From the NCBI GenBank assembly GCA_963668175.1, contig OY764159.1, positions 1,152,001 to 1,216,000 of the forward strand: a stretch of DNA of 64,000 bases, read 5' to 3'. Every line of letters begins with the position of its first letter. The first letter of the stretch is position 1. Positions 52,977 to 61,255 of the stretch are shown here, one piece after another. The stretch comes from Syntrophales bacterium. Its GTDB lineage: Bacteria > Desulfobacterota > Syntrophia > Syntrophales > PHBD01. The translations under genes and the position numbers were made by a program. The notes beneath the pieces were generated by a model. It was not told the origin of the DNA, did no database searches, and was given only the letters and a program-made list of their open reading frames with translations.

Positions 52977-55211
52977 TTACGCGCATTCGCTGTATCCGCA
53001 CAGGCGGCATACCATGCATCCGCCCTCATGTTCCACGATGCCGCCGCAGTCCGGGCAGGCGCCCCTAGCGAGGGCGACCTTTTCATGGATCGTTTCATAG
53101 CCGTTGGCCGCCATATGGGATTGGATGGCCTTGGCGACGGCGTCGGCGCAGGAGAGGATCTTGTTGTCGCCGAATCCGGACGGGGAATGGCAGGAGATGC
53201 CTTGCAACTGTTTGATAACCTGCTTGGCCTGGACGCCGCTGCGCCAGGCAAGGGAAACCATGCGTCCGATGGCTTCGCTCTGGGACGCGGCGCAGCCGCC
53301 CGCCTTGCCCATGGTCGTGAAAAGCTCGAATAGCCCCTGGGTATCCTGATTCACCGTGACGTAAAGGGGGCCGCAACCCGTCTGCATCTGGTACGTCCAG
53401 CCCTTCAAGACCTTGGGGCGCTCCCGCTTGATCACTTTTTTCTCTTTATCAGCCGTGAGCCTCGCGGGAGGGGCTTCCTTCTTGCCTTTGGAGAGGACCT
53501 GCTTGTCCCTGCTGCCGTCGCGATAGATAGTAACGCCTTTGCAGCCCAGTTGATAGGCCAGCCGGTAGACTTTTGTGACGTCGTCGACGGTAGCCCCGTT
53601 AGAGAAATTGACGGTCTTGCTGACGGCGTTGTCCGTGTATTTCTGGAAGGCTGCTTGCATCTTGATATGAACTTCCGGCGAGATGTCGTGTGCCGTCACG
53701 AAAATCTTCCGGACGTCTTCCGGAACGTCTTCCAGGTCTCGGACGGAACCGCGTTCGGCGATGAGTTGCATCAGCTCGGGGGTGTAGAAACCCCTTTCCT
53801 TGGCGATCCGTTCGAATAGGGGATGGACCTCCACCAGGATGTCGTTATCCATCACCTGGCGTACGTAAGACACGGCGAAGATCGGCTCCACGCCGGACGA
53901 GGCATTGGCGATGATGGATATCGTTCCCGTCGGGGCAATAGTGGTCACCGTGGCGTTCCGGATCGGGGGTTCGCTCTTCAGGTTGTAGGTGGACCCGCTG
54001 AAATTCGGGAAGGGACCCCGTATTTTCGCCAGTTCGCGGGATTGTTCGTGCCCGTTCTCCTGGATGAAGCGCATGACTTTCTGGGCCAGCTCAAGGGCCT
54101 CGTCCGAGTCGTAGGCGATATTCAACATGATCAGCATGTCGGCCCAACCCATGACGCCCAGGCCTATCTTCCGGTTGCTGCGGGTCATCTCCTCGATCTG
54201 CGGCAGCGGGTATTGATTCACTTCCACAACGTTGTCCAGGAAGCGAACGGCCAGCTGAACGACCTCTTTGAGCCTCGCCCAGTCGATCTGGTCCTTCTTC
54301 ACCATCTTCGCCAGGTTGATCGACCCGAGGTTGCAGGACTCGTAGGGCAGGAGAGGCTGTTCGCCGCAGGGGTTCGTCGATTCGATCTGGCCGACGTTGG
54401 GAGTCGGGTTGTCGCGGTTGAGGCGGTCCAGAAAAACAATCCCCGGCTCACCGTTTTCCCATGCCTGGGCGACGATCCTGTTGAAGACCTTTTGCGCGTT
54501 CAAGCCGCCGGTGACCTGCCCGTTTCGCGGATTGATAAGGTCGTAATTCTCGTCGTGCTCCACGGCGGCCATGAAGGCCTCCGTCAGGCCGACGGAGATA
54601 TTGAAATTGTTCAGCTGTTTGGTGTCGGCCTTGCACATGATGAAATCCATGATATCCGGGTGATCGACGCGCAGTATGCCCATGTTGGCTCCCCGCCGCG
54701 TTCCCCCCTGCTTGATGGTTTCCGTGGCGACATCGAAGACCCTCATAAAGGATATCGGCCCGCTGGAAATGCCCGCCGTGGTCAGAACCTGGTCGTTGGC
54801 GGGGCGCAGCCGGGAAAAGGAAAAGCCGGTGCCGCCGCCCGATTTGTGGATCAAGGCGGTATATTTGACGGCATCGAAAATCTCTTCCATGGAGTCGCCG
54901 ACGGGCAGGACGAAGCATGCGGAAAGCTGGCCCAGTTCCCGTCCCGCGTTCATCAGGGTCGGGGAATTGGGCAGGAACTCCAATCCCACCATCATACTGT
55001 AGAACTGTTCCGATAACTTGGCCGTGTCGGCCTGGGCATCGAATTTCCGGTCGGCCGCCGCGATGGCATCGGCGACCCGCTTGAACATATGGGCCGGCGT
55101 TTCCAGCACCTTGGCGTCCTTGTCCCGCTTCAGGTAGCGCCTTTCCAGGACGGTCATGGCATTTTTGGATAAGTGCAAAGTAGCAGGCATAGCGGAAACT
55201 CTGTTAGGCAT
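52977..55211 (-). CDS. nrdJ: Class II (B12-dependent) ribonucleotide reductase
   Basis: FLPNSPTLMNAG, QLSACFV, TNPCGEQPL, TIAPTGT, C-terminal TSCPD-like and Cys-rich tail; start could be 55189. Confidence 0.97.
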   Translation of the reverse strand: MPNRVSAMPATLHLSKNAMTVLERRYLKRDKDAKVLETPAHMFKRVADAIAAADRKFDAQADTAKLSEQFYSMMVGLEFLPNSPTLMNAGRELGQLSACFVLPVGDSMEEIFDAVKYTALIHKSGGGTGFSFSRLRPANDQVLTTAGISSGPISFMRVFDVATETIKQGGTRRGANMGILRVDHPDIMDFIMCKADTKQLNNFNISVGLTEAFMAAVEHDENYDLINPRNGQVTGGLNAQKVFNRIVAQAWENGEPGIVFLDRLNRDNPTPNVGQIESTNPCGEQPLLPYESCNLGSINLAKMVKKDQIDWARLKEVVQLAVRFLDNVVEVNQYPLPQIEEMTRSNRKIGLGVMGWADMLIMLNIAYDSDEALELAQKVMRFIQENGHEQSRELAKIRGPFPNFSGSTYNLKSEPPIRNATVTTIAPTGTISIIANASSGVEPIFAVSYVRQVMDNDILVEVHPLFERIAKERGFYTPELMQLIAERGSVRDLEDVPEDVRKIFVTAHDISPEVHIKMQAAFQKYTDNAVSKTVNFSNGATVDDVTKVYRLAYQLGCKGVTIYRDGSRDKQVLSKGKKEAPPARLTADKEKKVIKRERPKVLKGWTYQMQTGCGPLYVTVNQDTQGLFELFTTMGKAGGCAASQSEAIGRMVSLAWRSGVQAKQVIKQLQGISCHSPSGFGDNKILSCADAVAKAIQSHMAANGYETIHEKVALARGACPDCGGIVEHEGGCMVCRLCGYSECA

Positions 55212-55414: not shown

Positions 55415-56107
55415 CTACGGCGCGCTGCCGTTTATGCAATTGAGCATCTTTTCACTTTCGATAAAACGAAGGGTGGCTGTCCCTGCAGGGGATGTGCCGT
55501 TTCGGGATGCGATAAACGCCTTTAAATCTTCTATCGTGTCGATATCGCGCCAGCATGGAAGAATCGCAAGCCGCAGGCCTTTCGCCTTGATGATCCTGCA
55601 TGTGCTTTCGCAGACGCTGTCCGAGCCCCAGGGAATCTCCATGAAGGCATCCGGCAGAAATGCGGCGGCCTTGAAACCAATCAGGTAGTATCCGCCATCC
55701 GCGGCGGGGCCGATCACACAGTCGTTGGTTCCCAGTGCGGCGAATCCTGCCTCGACGATCGTCGCCGGCAGGTCGGGGAGGTCGCTGCCGATCAAAAGGA
55801 GCGAATCGTAGCCCTCCGAAAAGATCTTCCGGAAGGCATGGCTCATTCTTTCTCCCAGGTCGCTCCCCTCTTGGGGCTCGCAGGGACGGTCGTGGCCCAG
55901 CCAGGCCGCCACGCTCTCCTGTTGATCGGGCGGATAAAAGAAGAGCCTGACATCGAATGGTCCCCGGCCCATCGTCTCCAGGATATCCGCTACGAAGTGC
56001 CGATAGAGCATTCTTGCGTTCTCTTCCCCGATGGCCTTCGCCAGGCGGGATTTGACGGTTGCCGCACCGGGCGCCTTGACGAATATGATGAGTCCTTGCC
56101 GCTCCAT
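55415..56107 (-). CDS. TIGR04282/DUF2064-type glycosyltransferase-like protein
   Basis: IFVKAP...VKSRLA, QEGSDLGERM, IGSDLP, GPAADGGYYLIG, DIDTIEDL. Confidence 0.88.
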   Translation of the reverse strand: MERQGLIIFVKAPGAATVKSRLAKAIGEENARMLYRHFVADILETMGRGPFDVRLFFYPPDQQESVAAWLGHDRPCEPQEGSDLGERMSHAFRKIFSEGYDSLLLIGSDLPDLPATIVEAGFAALGTNDCVIGPAADGGYYLIGFKAAAFLPDAFMEIPWGSDSVCESTCRIIKAKGLRLAILPCWRDIDTIEDLKAFIASRNGTSPAGTATLRFIESEKMLNCINGSAP

Positions 56108-56234
56108 GGAACCATTATAACGGGGATGGCCGCTCCGGGCAAGAAGAAGGCGCAATGGCCCCGTTCCCGGGCGACGACCGGGAATCCACGGCCGCCGTTT
56201 CCGGCCGATATGACCGTTTCGCCGCGTTCCCGGT

Positions 56235-57320
56235 CTATTTGAAGATGTTGTAGTCGAGGCCCCGTATCCGCGCCCTTTCGGCGAACCAGTCGTCTTCCGT
56301 CAGGGGCGGTTTGGTCAATTTGTCCGGCGCCTTGCGGACCAGGCGGATCGCGTCCGCCGGGCAGCGGCGCACGCAAAGGCCGCAGCCGATGCACTTTTCC
56401 TCCACGACACGGTATGCATCTCCGTCTTCCGCGACGGCGCCGACCTGGCAGCGTTCGTCGGCACAGAGGCCGCAGCCGATGCACGTATCGGCGTCGATGA
56501 CGGCATAGTGGTAGGAATTGATGACCACCGACGCCGGGATGCCGAGGTCGTTGATGGCGCTGAGGACTCCGCAGCAGCACTTGCAGCAGTTGCAGATATA
56601 GATGTGCCCCGCCTGGATATTGTACGTGAGATGGACCAGGCCGGCTTCTTCGGCCTTGTCGAGCATTGCGTAGGCCTCCTCCTTGGTGATGACCCGTCCC
56701 GTCGGCGATTTTTTGAACATCCCGGGTACTGGGGCGATGCCCAGGCAGACTTCCAGCGGTTTGTCGCAGGGATGGCCCATCAGGGACTTCTCTTTTTTAC
56801 AGATACATTCGTTCAGGAGAAAGGACCGGCCGGCTTCGATAATGGCCGAAACCTTCTCATACGACAGGCTTTCCTGGTGGCTGGGTATCACCTCGTCGAC
56901 GGCGATGGTCTGCATGAGCGGCGGCTTCTTCGAGAAAAATTCCCTGCCGTAAAGAGGCCAGTATTCCTCCATCAGTTCGGCGAATTCTTTGTCCATCCGG
57001 CCGAGCTGAAATTCGTAGATACCGAATATCCAGGGCATCATTTTAAAATACCGGGTTTTGTCCAGGCGGATCGAGAACAGCTGTCCCGCGACGACCATGT
57101 CGAAAAGCTTTGCCTCCAGGCCTTCCAGGGGGCGGCCCGTGCGCTCGGCGATCTGCTCGGCCGATTCAAACGTCATCTTCAGGTCGCAGAAAAGGTCTGC
57201 CTGTTCGGGGAGGAAGACTTTCTTCAAAAGCTTGATTTCCACGCCGCTTTCCGAGGCAGGGTAGCCGTTCGGCAAGGTATCCAGGACTTTGGCCAACCGC
57301 TGATACATGTCGTCGCTCAT
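56235..57320 (-). CDS. 4Fe-4S binding protein
   Basis: ICNCCKCCC and two CxxCxxC...C ferredoxin motifs. Confidence 0.88.
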   Translation of the reverse strand: MSDDMYQRLAKVLDTLPNGYPASESGVEIKLLKKVFLPEQADLFCDLKMTFESAEQIAERTGRPLEGLEAKLFDMVVAGQLFSIRLDKTRYFKMMPWIFGIYEFQLGRMDKEFAELMEEYWPLYGREFFSKKPPLMQTIAVDEVIPSHQESLSYEKVSAIIEAGRSFLLNECICKKEKSLMGHPCDKPLEVCLGIAPVPGMFKKSPTGRVITKEEAYAMLDKAEEAGLVHLTYNIQAGHIYICNCCKCCCGVLSAINDLGIPASVVINSYHYAVIDADTCIGCGLCADERCQVGAVAEDGDAYRVVEEKCIGCGLCVRRCPADAIRLVRKAPDKLTKPPLTEDDWFAERARIRGLDYNIFK

Positions 57321-57373
57321 GATCCGATCTCCGTTCGTTATTTTGGCATGTTCTCTTTGTTTGCGTCCTATCG

Positions 57374-57967
57374 TTACGGCTCTGTTCTTATCTTTTCCGC
57401 TTTCTTGCCGGCGATGACGGTCTTTCCCGTTTCCATGAGGAGTTTCGTGACTTCCTCTTCCGTCATCTCGGCGATCACGCCGTTGTTGCTCAGGACGGCA
57501 AGGCCGTGGGAGAATATCCACATCTTGTAGAGAATGTCCTTCTTCTCTTCGAGGGTGAACCCCGGCAGGACCGATTCGTCGCGGAGCCTCTCCATGACGG
57601 CTTCGACGACATAGCCGTGACGCCCGCCTGTCTCGTCCCCGGGCTCGTCTTCGCCGGATTCCTTGGAGTAGAGCATCCGGAAGAGGTTCTTTTCGATTTG
57701 GGCGAACAGGACGTAACCGATCCCCATGTCGAGAAATCGCCATCTCGATCTCTCTTTTGTCTGGTAGCGGATGAGCAGGTCGGAAGCCCTCCGGGCGATG
57801 GCGTCCTTGAGTTTCTGCATGCAGCTCAGGCCCGAGTAGATCGGCATCGTGGACGACCCCAGTTCCCGGGCGATCATCCGGGCCGTGCACCTTTCCCAGC
57901 CGTGCTTCCGGGTAACGGAAAAAGCCGCGTCCACGATATCTTCTTTGGTAAATCGTACTTCCGGCAT
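57374..57967 (-). CDS. TetR/AcrR family regulator
   Basis: FTKEDIVDAAF...ARMIARELGSSTMPIY. Confidence 0.88.
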   Translation of the reverse strand: MPEVRFTKEDIVDAAFSVTRKHGWERCTARMIARELGSSTMPIYSGLSCMQKLKDAIARRASDLLIRYQTKERSRWRFLDMGIGYVLFAQIEKNLFRMLYSKESGEDEPGDETGGRHGYVVEAVMERLRDESVLPGFTLEEKKDILYKMWIFSHGLAVLSNNGVIAEMTEEEVTKLLMETGKTVIAGKKAEKIRTEP

Positions 57968-58633: not shown

Positions 58634-59178
58634 AGCCCTACCCCATGACAGTCGGCCAGTTGGCGAAGCAGGCGGGTCTGTCCCGAAGCACGCTTCTCTA
58701 TTACGATTCCATCGGTCTCCTGCGACCCACGGGACGGAGCCGCGCCAACTATCGGCGGTATACCGAGGAGGACGCCCGGCGTCTCGAAAAGATTCGTCTT
58801 TATCGGCAGATGGGTCTTTCCACGACGCTCGTCGCCGAAATTCTCGCCGCCCCCAAGAGCGGCGTCCGGGACATCCTGGAGAAAAGGCTTTGGGAACTGG
58901 GCAAGGAAATCGGTCGCCTGAGGGAACAGCAGGAGGTCATCATCCGGATACTGCAGGACAATTCCCTCCGGGGGCGGCTCTCGTTTCTCAGCAAGGACGA
59001 CTGGGTTGCCCTCTTTCGGTCCGCCGGCCTCGACGACGAGGGGATGGAGACGTGGCATCGGGAGTTCGAAAAGCTCTCCCCCCATTCTCATCAGGAGTTT
59101 CTGGAAGGGCTCGGCATCCCGGCCGCAGAGATTGACCTGATCCGGAAAGCGTCCCGGAAGGGGACTCCCGGGAAATGA
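58630..59178 (+). CDS. MerR family transcriptional regulator (no Cys)
   Basis: TVGQLAKQAGLSRSTLLYYDSIGLL, NYRRY; GTGA start/stop overlap with the upstream gene. Confidence 0.92.
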   Translation: MKPYPMTVGQLAKQAGLSRSTLLYYDSIGLLRPTGRSRANYRRYTEEDARRLEKIRLYRQMGLSTTLVAEILAAPKSGVRDILEKRLWELGKEIGRLREQQEVIIRILQDNSLRGRLSFLSKDDWVALFRSAGLDDEGMETWHREFEKLSPHSHQEFLEGLGIPAAEIDLIRKASRKGTPGK

Positions 59179-59197
59179 AGAAAAGGAGGTTCTGATT

Positions 59198-59956
59198 GTG
59201 AATAATCAACTGATGATCGGTTTGTGGCGCCTCATGATCCAGCTTCCCCCGTCCCTTCTGGAGGGCAGGATGGCCAAGGCCAAGGAGAAATTTGCCAGGG
59301 AACTGGCCTTCATGACCGGCGAACACCGGGCGGTCCATCATTATGTAGTCCGTCAGCTTCCCTATGCAACGTCCCCTCTCGCCCCGGAGGCGATCGCCGC
59401 CGCCCTGGGCATGGACCGGGAGAGGGTTGAAACCCTGCTGGACGACCTCGAGAGGCATATGACCTTTCTTTTCAGGAACGACCGGCGGGAGGTTGTCTGG
59501 GCCTATCCGGTTACGCTGGAAAAAACGCCCCACCATCTCACCTTCGGCACGGGTGAAACCGTTTATGCCGCCTGAGCGGCCGACGCGTTCGCGGCGCCCT
59601 TCGTGCAAGGGCGGTTGAGAAAAGAGTCCCTGTCCGTCACCGTTCGTTCGGAATGCGCCCATTGCGGCCGTCCCATGGAGATGGAAATCGACAGCGACCT
59701 TGCGTACCGCGTAAAAGATGACGACTGCCGGCCCGTCGTCTTTATGCCCGACGTCGATCTTTACAAGCTTAAGGATGCCAGCATCATCGACGCCTTCTGA
59801 AAGGAGAGCGTCTTCTTCTGGTCAGAAGAGCATGCCAAGGCTTACAGGAAATCCGTTCATAGGATTCGTGGCGTCTATTTCAGCGCCGCACAGCTGGTCC
59901 GGGCAACCCGCGTCGCCCAAAGCGCCCTTTTCGGCTTCGACGGTCCTGCGCCGTGA
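59198..59956 (+). CDS. MerB-like organometal lyase, predicted selenoprotein with two Sec (UGA at 59573 and 59798), 252 aa
   Basis: One continuous frame: WAYPVTLEKTPHHL, VYAA-U-AADAF, SECAHCG, IIDAF-U-KESVFFWSEEHA; SECIS-like hairpin after each UGA; RBS AAGGAGG. Confidence 0.85.
59592..59617 (+). other. Putative SECIS element 1
   Basis: CGCCCTT-CGTGC-AAGGGCG stem-loop with GU in the loop; loop starts 26 nt after the UGA. Confidence 0.65.
59808..59835 (+). other. Putative SECIS element 2
   Basis: GCGT-C-TTCTTCT-GGTC-AGAAGAG-C-ATGC; GGUC apical loop starts 19 nt after the UGA. Confidence 0.75.
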
Positions 59957-60079
59957 AGCCTTTCGTCGGCAAAGCTGCGAAGGTTCTTCCCGCCGCTTTT
60001 TTGCCTTGTTCGCCCTGCGTTATTATAGTATGAAAGTTCCCTCGAAACGTCGGATGCGTTTTCAACAGGGAACGGTACG

Positions 60080-61255
60080 ATGAGAATCATTCTTTTTACC
60101 GGCAAAGGGGGAACCGGTAAGACCACCTGTGCTGCGGCCACTGCTATGAAGACGGCAGCGTCAGGTTTGCGCACCCTCATCATCTCCACGGACTCCGCCC
60201 ACAGCCTGGCCGATGCCCTCGACGTCAAATTGGGGCCCGAGCCGGCCGAGGCGGCGGAAAACCTCTACGCCCAGGAACTCGACATCTATTACTCCATGCG
60301 CAAGTACTGGGGGAACCTCAGCAATATGCTCCGCCAGGCCTTAAGCTGGCAGCGCATGGACCGGATGCTGGTGGAGGAAATGGCCGCCCTGCCGGGTATG
60401 GCGGAGGCCTCGGCCTTCCTGTGGGTCGACAAGTATTACCGGGAAGGGGAGTACGACGTCCTTATCGTCGACAGTGCGCCCACGGGCGAAACCCTGACCC
60501 TCCTCACGCTGCCCCAGGTCAGCCGATGGTGGACCTCCAAGCTTTTCCCCTACCCGAAGATGGCGACGAAGGCCTTCGGCGCCTTTGTGCATGCGACGAC
60601 CGGCATCCCCCTGGACGAAAGCTACCGGGAGCTGGACGACCTTTTCACGAAGCTGGAGAGTCTCTATGAGATTTTCAGCAACCCCCTGATCACCTCCGTC
60701 CGCGTCGTCACCAACCCGGAGAAAATGGCCGTCCAGGAGGCCAAACGGGCCTATACGTATCTGCTGCTTCACGGCTACAGCGTCGACGCCGTGATCGTCA
60801 ACCGAGTCCTGCCCGATGCATCCGCCGACTCTTTCTGGAAGGGTTATCTGCAATCCCAAAAGCATTACCTGGAGGATATCGGGACGTCTTTTTATCCCCT
60901 GCCTGTCTTCACGCTGCATCATACAGGCCGGGAGGTGTTCGGCATAGAGATGCTCGGCCGCCTCGGCGACGGGCTCTATGCGGGGCGAAATCCCGTCGAG
61001 GTCCTTCATGCGGAAAAATCTTTTGTACTGGAAGATGTGGGGGAAATCGTGAGGCTCAAATTGAGGCTGCCGTTCTTTGAGAACAGCGACTTCAGGATCG
61101 AGCAGTTCGGCGACGAGTTGGTCATCAACATCCGGAACAACCGGCGCAATCTCTTCCTGCCCAAATTCATGGGCCATTTCGTCATCCGGGACTATTATTA
61201 CGAAGATCCGAACCTCGTCGTTCTCTTTTCACGGATTACGCCTTTCGGATCATGA
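60080..61255 (+). CDS. ArsA/GET3-like ATPase with C-terminal HSP20-like domain
   Basis: GKGGTGKTT, STDSAHSL, DSAPTG, VTNPEKM; C-terminal LRLPF...GDELVI. Confidence 0.9.
   Translation: MRIILFTGKGGTGKTTCAAATAMKTAASGLRTLIISTDSAHSLADALDVKLGPEPAEAAENLYAQELDIYYSMRKYWGNLSNMLRQALSWQRMDRMLVEEMAALPGMAEASAFLWVDKYYREGEYDVLIVDSAPTGETLTLLTLPQVSRWWTSKLFPYPKMATKAFGAFVHATTGIPLDESYRELDDLFTKLESLYEIFSNPLITSVRVVTNPEKMAVQEAKRAYTYLLLHGYSVDAVIVNRVLPDASADSFWKGYLQSQKHYLEDIGTSFYPLPVFTLHHTGREVFGIEMLGRLGDGLYAGRNPVEVLHAEKSFVLEDVGEIVRLKLRLPFFENSDFRIEQFGDELVINIRNNRRNLFLPKFMGHFVIRDYYYEDPNLVVLFSRITPFGS

Follow-up and report, generated by a model that had tools for sequence, protein, structure and literature searches.

A MerB-like protein of a Syntrophales bacterium with selenocysteine predicted at both catalytic cysteine positions

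A stretch of 64,000 nucleotides from the genome of a Syntrophales bacterium of the PHBD01 lineage was analysed (assembly GCA_963668175.1, contig OY764159.1, positions 1,152,001 to 1,216,000 of the forward strand), and the whole stretch is called the window below. The gene at 59198-59956 was recognized as encoding a MerB-like protein, in which both catalytic cysteine positions of MerB fall on in-frame UGA codons. To our knowledge, MerB is the only enzyme known to break the mercury-carbon bond. We infer with high confidence that this is a genuine two-selenocysteine protein, i.e., that selenium is incorporated as selenocysteine (Sec, U) at both sites. The best overall explanation, to which we give slightly better than an even chance, is a two-Sec protein with the MerB fold that works like MerB. 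From comparison of homologous sequences, the two-Sec family appears to be a MerB-like selenoprotein family with both catalytic ligands as Sec, which is widespread and systematically mis-annotated.

Reading frame and active-site mapping

The gene forms a single frame from a GTG start, and the internal stops were solely TGA, at codons 126 and 201 when translated with TGA as U. In the list of open reading frames (ORFs), the gene appears as separate fragments, i.e., 59198-59575 (125 aa) and 59603-59800 (65 aa). A previous reading of the window, made from the sequence only, had claimed that these fragments share one frame with only TGA between them, and this was borne out by the translation and by the ORF list. 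The read-through product has the predicted 252 residues, and the motifs quoted in that reading, i.e., VYAA-U-AAD, SECAHCG, and IIDAF-U-KESVFFWSEEHAKAY, were all present. The sequence-only reading had also expected that standard annotation would split the gene, and the public gene call for the PHBD01 genome is indeed the 125-aa fragment.

The region 59100-60050 was matched with 0 differences by contigs from two public sequencing runs. The two runs share one sample, which is probably the source of the genome, so they give no independent support and exclude merely a slip in the window. GGAG-type sites precede the aligned start codon in most homologues. No terminator-like site was found 3' of the gene in the promoter and terminator scan.

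In domain search, the Pfam MerB family (PF03243) matched residues 106-236 at 59.9 bits, above the gathering threshold of 27. A six-frame search of the genome with the same model gave 43.4 bits with two TGA codons within the match, and this was the sole MerB-family gene of the genome. The AlphaFold2 model, made from 26 orthologues, showed a predicted local distance difference test (pLDDT) score of 86.9 and a predicted TM-score (pTM) of 0.85. With this predicted model as the query, the 11 best Foldseek matches in the PDB were all MerB or MerB2 (E 3.7e-12 to 2.6e-7), with TM-scores of 0.62-0.83 normalised to the target and 17-20% identity. MerB of plasmid R831b (1s6l, 3f0o, 3f0p) and Bacillus MerB2 (5c17) have the same fold, and the columns of Cys96, Asp99, Cys159, and Cys117 align with the two-Sec protein.

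The profile of the 26 orthologues was aligned with E. coli MerB, and the MerB residue numbering was anchored by the C160S mutant chain 3f2g. By this alignment, U126 was assigned to Cys96, D129 to Asp99, C153 to Cys117, and U201 to Cys159. The four residues were invariant in 26/26 orthologues, and Asp was found at the position of residue 129 in almost every tallied database protein that spans the site. The earlier proposal that the protein is MerB-like, with both UGAs on the catalytic cysteines, is therefore agreed on by the Pfam match, the predicted fold, and the profile alignment. It was confirmed at this predicted level that the product of 59198-59956 has the MerB fold with both metal-ligating cysteine positions as Sec, while the Asp99 and Cys117 equivalents are kept.

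The signature of MerB, i.e., Cys96, Asp99, Cys117, and Cys159, is present in part. Asp99 and Cys117 are kept and positions 96 and 159 are UGA; the positions are conserved, but the residue identity is not. The curated NCBIfam models of MerB, NF033555 and NF009710 (EC 4.99.1.2), matched at 56.4 and 57.4 bits, far below their cut-offs of 200 and 193. In NCBIfam release 20, no model claims the two-Sec protein.

Conservation of the UGA codons, putative hairpins and decoding machinery

Homologues were searched in two collections. The phylum sample consisted of 401 genomes, and the six-frame search gave 30 genomes with a match, of which 26 were strong (E <= 8.3e-56, the PHBD01 genome counted). The scan of a species-genome collection gave 253 relatives, and the site counts cover the best 80 of these 253. 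The set of 26 and the set of 80 overlap in 14 genes, giving 92 distinct genes. Neither the search patterns nor the tblastn ranking gave a preference to TGA over Cys. Both sites were TGA in 92/92 of the distinct genes from species genomes, and internal TAA or TAG was found in 0; the TAA/TAG codons seen in two loci (L056 and L114) are the natural stop at residue 248. The 26 orthologues showed protein identity of 41-64%, and their frame is conserved beyond both UGAs, to residue ~247. The same two aligned TGA sites across these 92 genes are more than chance would give.

The profile search of 1.84 billion representative proteins gave 1275 matches at E <= 1e-3, 448 at <= 1e-10, and 79 at <= 1e-30. 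From the database searches, 223 proteins were tallied, and in 118 of them residue 125 is precisely the last. Cys occupies site 1 in 17 others, which run to residue 200, and 38 full-length entries (P0002-P0044 and others) read Trp at both Sec sites. The Trp/Trp entries seem to come from gene calling on short metagenome contigs under a code that takes TGA as Trp, and this artefact could be used to mine other multi-Sec proteins. Six full-length relatives are stop-free, i.e., three with Ser at site 1 and Cys at site 2 (P0032, P0046, and P0142) and three with Gly and Cys (P0082, P0121, and P0135). A few of the tallied proteins are more divergent. No Cys/Cys form was found among the 223 proteins, an odd gap in a family of MerB type. 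The source names examined were all 'hypothetical protein'.

The sequence-only reading had named homologues as the means to judge its proposal. Neither TAA nor TAG occurred at these sites in any of the homologues. They had TGA at both sites, or Cys at the first, and in a few divergent variants of full length the first site is Ser or Gly. Conservation continued 3' of either UGA. One carrier genome has, in addition to the two-TGA copy, a second copy (G275:C7:5030-5765, minus strand) that matched as two adjacent pieces with one TGA each; it may be a frameshifted paralogue.

The relatives with Cys at site 1 and UGA at site 2 (e.g., P0045, P0047, and L133-L148) are 44-62% identical to the two-Sec protein (15 aligned) and have the same length, motifs, UGA-2, and hairpin 2. 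They differ in having a TGC or TGT codon at site 1 and a decayed hairpin 1, with 4-5 of 6 pairs. They serve as a natural control for the first selenocysteine insertion sequence (SECIS).

Each UGA is followed by a putative SECIS hairpin lying within the coding sequence (Table 1). Across the 26 orthologues, the cells of hairpin 1 pair in 90.7%, against 16-55% when the partner strand is slid, and those of hairpin 2 in 92.0%, against 45-63%. The closing pair of hairpin 2 is U-A in 16 orthologues, C-G in 10, and broken in 0, and the C-G form costs a Trp-to-Arg change. The codons are also restrained in the same set. The codon entropy was 0-0.24 bit at the hairpin codons P134, F135, V136, Q137, G138, F207, and E210, whereas it was 1.1-1.7 bit at the invariant residues outside the hairpins, i.e., P17, V51, V99, A102, P104, V105, T106, and G225. 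Synonymous positions are frozen in the hairpin codons only.

The natural control was examined in 57 metagenomic loci around the Cys-site-1 clade, of which 47 cover site 1 and 43 reach site 2. The 6-bp core of hairpin 1 was complete in 30/30 loci with TGA at site 1 and in 0/17 loci with TGC or TGT there, where 4-5 of 6 pairs were left. In the Cys-site-1 loci, the PFVQG motif has drifted to PFVES, PFVQA, and similar forms. Two compensatory variants of hairpin 1 were found, i.e., U-A to C-G in L159, costing a change of Phe to Leu, and C-G to U-A in L180, costing a change of Pro to Ser. At site 2, TGA was found in 43/43 loci that reach it, and the 7-bp upper stem of hairpin 2 was 7/7 in 38 loci and 6/7 in 5. 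By these comparisons, the putative hairpin 1 is kept where UGA-1 is kept and decayed where UGA-1 is absent. In runs X1 and X3 of the sample mentioned above, a ~3.5x contig matches only 36 nt of hairpin 2 (59800-59835) and then diverges. It seems that a second organism in that sample carries a homologue sharing the conserved hairpin.

Genes for Sec decoding were searched in the PHBD01 genome, since their absence had been named as fatal to the proposal, and selA, selB, selC, and selD were all found. SelA matched at 514.6 bits, and the SelB wing domain lies within a 639-aa frame. The tRNA-Sec (selC) scored 77.4 bits with the anticodon TCA. The selD gene (G000:C1:4129230-4130159, outside the window) scored 391.4 bits and itself has one in-frame TGA. 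Its product is thus a selenoprotein as well, and this gives separate evidence for the decoding of UGA as Sec in this organism. SelA was present in 23/25 of the other carrier genomes. SelA is common throughout the phylum sample (373/401 genomes), so finding it in carriers is to be expected and has no discriminating value. TGA also terminates the MerB-like gene and the gene upstream of it, which excludes a general sense code for TGA.

Table 1. Features of the MerB-like gene and of the gene upstream of it, in window coordinates
Feature	Position	Strand	Description and basis
MerR-family regulator, 186 aa	58618..59178	+	probable start ATG 58618, frame open from 58168; 19 nt upstream of the MerB-like gene
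Shine-Dalgarno AAGGAGG	59183..59189	+	8 nt 5' of GTG; read from the sequence
Predicted two-Sec MerB-like coding sequence, 252 aa	59198..59956	+	GTG start, TGA stop 59954-59956; translation, profile scores, predicted fold
UGA-1, predicted Sec126, equivalent of MerB Cys96	59573..59575	+	profile alignment to 1s6l/3f0o; TGA in 26/26 orthologues and 80/80 loci
Asp129 codon GAC, equivalent of MerB Asp99	59582-59584	+	profile alignment
Putative SECIS hairpin 1	59592..59617	+	core stem 59596-59601 with 59607-59612; loop CGUGC 59602-59606; codons of P134-F-V-Q-G138
Cys153 codon, equivalent of buried MerB Cys117	59654..59656	+	invariant in the family; alignment
UGA-2, predicted Sec201, equivalent of MerB Cys159	59798..59800	+	TGA in 26/26 orthologues, 80/80 loci, and 43/43 metagenome loci reaching the site
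Putative SECIS hairpin 2	59808..59835	+	11-bp stem with C.C mismatch; apical loop GGUC 59820-59823; codons of V-F-F-W-S-E-E-H

Gene neighbourhood, substrate leads and known relatives

The gene directly upstream showed a match to the Pfam MerR_1 and MerR helix-turn-helix families at ORF residues 160-227. In NCBIfam, only sub-cut-off matches to ZntR, CueR, MerR, and similar regulators were found, and MerR proper scored 36.8 against 150.85 bits. The protein has no Cys after its probable start, M151.

Neighbouring genes, 800 crude ORFs in all, were clustered for 81 loci with flanks of up to 6 kb, and 75 of the loci had upstream DNA. A regulator lies directly upstream on the same strand in 40/75 loci, i.e., MarR in 23 and MerR-type in 17. 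A 4HBT thioesterase lies directly downstream in 9 loci, and 8 of these also have MarR. These three were the only position-fixed partners across the 81 loci, with glyoxalase-fold, SnoaL, and ABM proteins as occasional neighbours. No set of ATP-binding cassette (ABC) transporter genes recurred among the neighbours. In one bacterial family, f19 (L029:833-1453, L030:814-1446, and L034:2318-2746), the gene order was MarR, a small S-adenosylmethionine (SAM)-dependent methyltransferase, and the MerB-like gene. This methyltransferase weakly resembles ArsM-type domains (E 1e-10), far below the cut-offs.

HgcA is encoded in the PHBD01 genome, at 451.1 bits against the cut-off of 275. Above this cut-off, HgcA was found in 14/26 carriers and in 105/375 of the other genomes of the phylum sample, a modest enrichment in counts of related genomes that are non-independent. 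Several observations speak against a mercury role. HgcA above the cut-off was missing in 12/26 carriers. The enrichment was also uneven, i.e., 5/6 carriers against 2/7 listed non-carriers in the f38 family and 0/5 carriers in f19, where the family tallies are incomplete and not all non-carriers without an HgcA match are listed. The MarR neighbours were Cys-free in 23/23, and the MerR-type neighbours have two invariant C-terminal His but are without the conserved Cys triad of Hg-sensing MerR. None of merT, merP, merA, a metal transporter, or a reductase recurred among the neighbours of the 81 loci, and the best MerA match in the PHBD01 genome was below the cut-off (386.6 against 454.45 bits). 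With no MerA, no mer neighbours, and Cys-free regulators, there is no mer operon here, and the regulators are unlike thiolate metal sensors.

Genes of organoarsenical type were also seen. At G000:C1:2037614-2039629, outside the window, hgcA lies ~200 nt after an ArsM-family arsenite methyltransferase gene on the same strand, and ArsM scored 358.5 against 263 bits. In the window, 3 kb upstream of the MerB-like gene, 55415-56155 on the minus strand encodes a member of the TIGR04282 'arsenosugar biosynthesis glycosyltransferase' family (193.3 against 134 bits). The TIGR04283 partner of this transferase (G000:C1:1216919-1217584; 249.8 against 182 bits) is ~5 kb downstream of the MerB-like gene, just past the window end. 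A radical-SAM ArsS family gene was found elsewhere in the genome (G000:C1:1892545-1893444). In other genomes, a TIGR04283-like gene lies directly downstream of the MerB-like gene in one locus (L095:2896-3552, the same as L019:751-1407), and both TIGR04282- and TIGR04283-type transferases are near it in another (L079:10091-11422). Among about 92 loci, no ArsS was found near the MerB-like gene, and ArsM gave weak methyltransferase matches only.

The GET3/ArsA-family ATPase gene at 60080-61255 (plus strand), with a C-terminal HSP20-like domain, starts ~125 nt after the MerB-like gene. It scored 240.4 against 135 bits for TIGR00345 and far below the cut-offs of ArsA pumps. A promoter-like site (60001-60029, 9 of 12) before it is weak evidence. 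This ATPase recurs beside the MerB-like gene only in L066, with 72% identity. The association with organoarsenical-type genes is rare but repeated. An arsenic link was rejected as the interpretation because the recurrence is too rare, i.e., L066, L079, and L095 (the same as L019) among about 92 loci. Neither the HgcA lead nor the arsenic lead is strong enough to name the substrate.

Two further genes of the window lie on the minus strand. The gene at 56235-57890 encodes a 551-aa protein with two C-terminal [4Fe-4S] motifs, and its ~460 N-terminal residues match no family. Its homologues (26-35% identity) were found a few kb from the MerB-like gene in five other loci (L031, L015, L064, L127, and L128). 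The gene at 52977-55211 encodes an ordinary B12-dependent ribonucleotide reductase, NrdJ (NF006417, 1270.7 bits), with a TSCPD domain.

The closest reported relative is SaoL (NF040728; Haft and Gwadz, bioRxiv 10.1101/2022.07.06.499078), a MerB-like 'selenocysteine-assisted organometallic lyase'. As far as the available text of the preprint describes it, SaoL shares with the two-Sec protein the MerB fold, a UGA-encoded Sec at the Cys159 site, anaerobe hosts, and truncation in databases. In the same text, the one Sec of SaoL belongs to a CU dipeptide and the Cys96 site remains Cys, whereas the two-Sec protein has U at site 1 and F-U at site 2. SaoL has ~213 residues there, whereas the two-Sec protein has 252 with an extra N-terminal segment. 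SaoL is also presented as the marker of a nine-gene SAO locus (SaoP, SaoB, SaoX, SaoE, SaoC, SaoT, and others) with ABC transporter and efflux genes. The two-Sec gene, unlike SaoL in its SAO cluster, adjoins a lone regulator. No Sao family was found in NCBIfam and Pfam scans of the neighbouring ORFs in the window; a genome-wide Sao search was not made. The SaoL model matched the two-Sec protein at 44.7 bits, below its cut-off of 140. The form differs from SaoL in this score, in the two Sec residues, and in the lack of an SAO neighbourhood in the window.

A 2026 review of the prokaryotic selenoproteome describes the inventory in its Table 1 as the most comprehensive. The table lists 119 families, and SaoL (CU, one Sec) is the sole MerB-like entry. 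A 2022 review likewise has one MerB-like entry in its accessible part. Full-text literature searches gave nothing on a two-Sec MerB form, although subscription-only papers and supplements could hold a mention. From MerB and MerB2, the two-Sec protein differs in that both catalytic Cys are changed to Sec, the scores are below the curated cut-offs, and no mer operon is present. Its hosts belong to strict-anaerobe lineages, i.e., Syntrophales, Desulfomonilaceae, Desulfobacterales, Nitrospirota, and Chloroflexota.

Proposed mechanism, rival explanations and meaning

In the proposed mechanism, the mRNA hairpin that follows each internal UGA would act as a bacterial SECIS, through which SelB recodes that UGA as Sec. 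The MerB-like gene may be co-transcribed with, or controlled by, the Cys-free MerR-type regulator just upstream. An organometal(loid) substrate would be held through its metal or metalloid atom by the two selenolates, and protonolysis would break the carbon-metal bond as Asp129 gives a proton to the leaving carbon. With their pKa near 5, selenols are deprotonated at neutral pH, and the resulting selenolates surpass thiolates as nucleophiles. Because of this, no activation by Asp and no deprotonation of a second ligand would be needed. These properties would suit a trace substrate in anoxic, sulfidic habitats, where the enzyme competes with sulfide and thiols. Given a genuine two-Sec protein, the fold and the active-site positions suggest that a carbon-metal(loid) lyase is reasonably probable. 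Methylmercury or another organomercurial is the leading candidate substrate, with organoarsenicals and other soft organometal(loid)s as alternatives, and an organomercurial can be proposed only tentatively. It is a speculative further step that the two-Sec family is the missing mer-independent demethylase of methylmercury, or more broadly of organometals, in anoxic habitats, alongside HgcAB in methylating lineages (Syntrophales, Desulfobacterota, Nitrospirota, and Chloroflexota).

Several points weigh against the best overall explanation. The hairpins alone are no stabler than shuffled sequences (z +0.81 for UGA-1 and +0.40 for UGA-2, in the 60 nt 3' of each), and the 60 nt after the terminal UGA gave z +0.05; the energy of a single sequence is by itself non-discriminating. 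A permissive Rfam scan of 59100-60100 gave no SECIS family and chance-level matches only. With neither in support, the case for the hairpins rests on the comparative data. In these data, hairpin 1 is too invariant, so there is almost no covariation within the 26-genome set, and the 17 Cys-site-1 controls form one close clade and thus possibly reflect a single evolutionary event. Two of the 25 other carriers (G148 and G360) are without a SelA match, though both have SelB. In the chemistry, the same affinity of selenolates would make Hg(II) release very difficult without a dedicated acceptor.

It could be asked whether the protein contains Sec at all. The TGAs may be true stops of a split or decaying gene, or Trp or Cys may be inserted at them, either through ordinary read-through or under an alternative code. 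Gene callers do stop at residue 125, 38 database entries have W at both sites, and the single-sequence hairpin energies are unremarkable. Decay, however, would bring TAA or TAG, frameshifts, and lost conservation downstream, and instead 92/92 genes keep both TGAs and a conserved open frame. A general sense codon is opposed by the TGA stops of the MerB-like and upstream genes. Hairpin 1 tracks UGA-1, and the genome has the full Sec machinery including a Sec-containing selD, so that an explanation without Sec is very improbable. Still less credit is given to the view that this is a conventional mercury-resistance MerB, encoded in a mer operon and unusual only in its Sec. The Pfam MerB match, the conserved catalytic positions, and the MerR-family gene upstream would fit it, but the NCBIfam MerB models failed (56.4 and 57.4 against 200 and 193 bits), the MerR-type neighbour is Cys-free and scored far from MerR proper (36.8 against 150.85 bits), MerA was below its cut-off, and merT, merP, and merA were missing from the recurrent neighbours of the 81 loci.

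If the protein is a genuine two-Sec protein, it may still not be a lyase. It may be a non-catalytic binder, buffer, or hand-off chaperone for a soft metal, i.e., Hg(II), or Cd, Cu(I), or As(III), with a bis-selenolate site in the MerB scaffold. The difficulty of Hg(II) release is the main chemical argument for this, and the PHBD01 genome has no MerA above the cut-off as an acceptor of the product. In the accessible text of PMC8261052, MerB retains Hg(II) after catalysis and passes it to MerA, and MerB variants that bind other metals are mentioned there and in the available part of Haft and Gwadz. Full-length relatives that combine Ser or Gly at site 1 with Cys at site 2 (6/223) show that the scaffold can persist when the catalytic pair is incomplete. 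Against this, the proton donor Asp129, which a pure binding site does not need, is invariant in 26/26, the costly double Sec insertion is kept in 92/92 genes, and the adjacent regulators have no thiolate metal-sensing site. We regard such a role as doubtful, although it deserves attention.

A redox protein is the other candidate. The two Sec residues, near each other in the MerB active site, would alternate between a diselenide and two selenols. The target would be an organic electrophile or peroxide, and a MarR or MerR-type regulator would provide stress control. Many selenoproteins with UxxC or CxxU motifs cycle between oxidised and reduced forms. Most prokaryotic selenoproteins are thought to be redox proteins (2026 review), and the neighbours, i.e., Cys-free MarR or MerR-type regulators, the 4HBT thioesterase, and occasional glyoxalase-fold, SnoaL, and ABM proteins, include no recurrent metal genes. 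However, the fold is that of MerB and not thioredoxin-like, the catalytic apparatus of MerB still has its conserved Asp and its buried Cys, and no reductase partner recurs in the neighbourhood. This role is considered improbable, and the two-Sec MerB-fold protein that works like MerB stays the preferred explanation.

Surveys of mer genes start from annotated proteins and look for Cys96, Asp99, Cys117, and Cys159 (Christakis et al. 2021, PMC8261052). In the available text of that study, no genome with MerB alone also encodes HgcAB, and selenocysteine is never mentioned. The two-Sec family is cut at UGA-1 to 125 residues and is therefore invisible to such surveys. It was found in 26/401 genomes of one phylum sample and in 253 stretches of the species-genome collection. 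Whatever the function, all public gene calls of the family that were examined are wrong, i.e., truncated or read with Trp, and a family model would correct them. Activity on organomercurials or other organometal(loid)s would make this a gene for anaerobic demethylation and its product the first enzyme in which both ligands of the catalytic metal-binding pair are Sec in a MerB scaffold. The cycling of mercury or arsenic would then be tied to selenium availability. If the demethylase proposal is true, net methylmercury production in sediments would depend on the selenium supply through the two-Sec enzyme.

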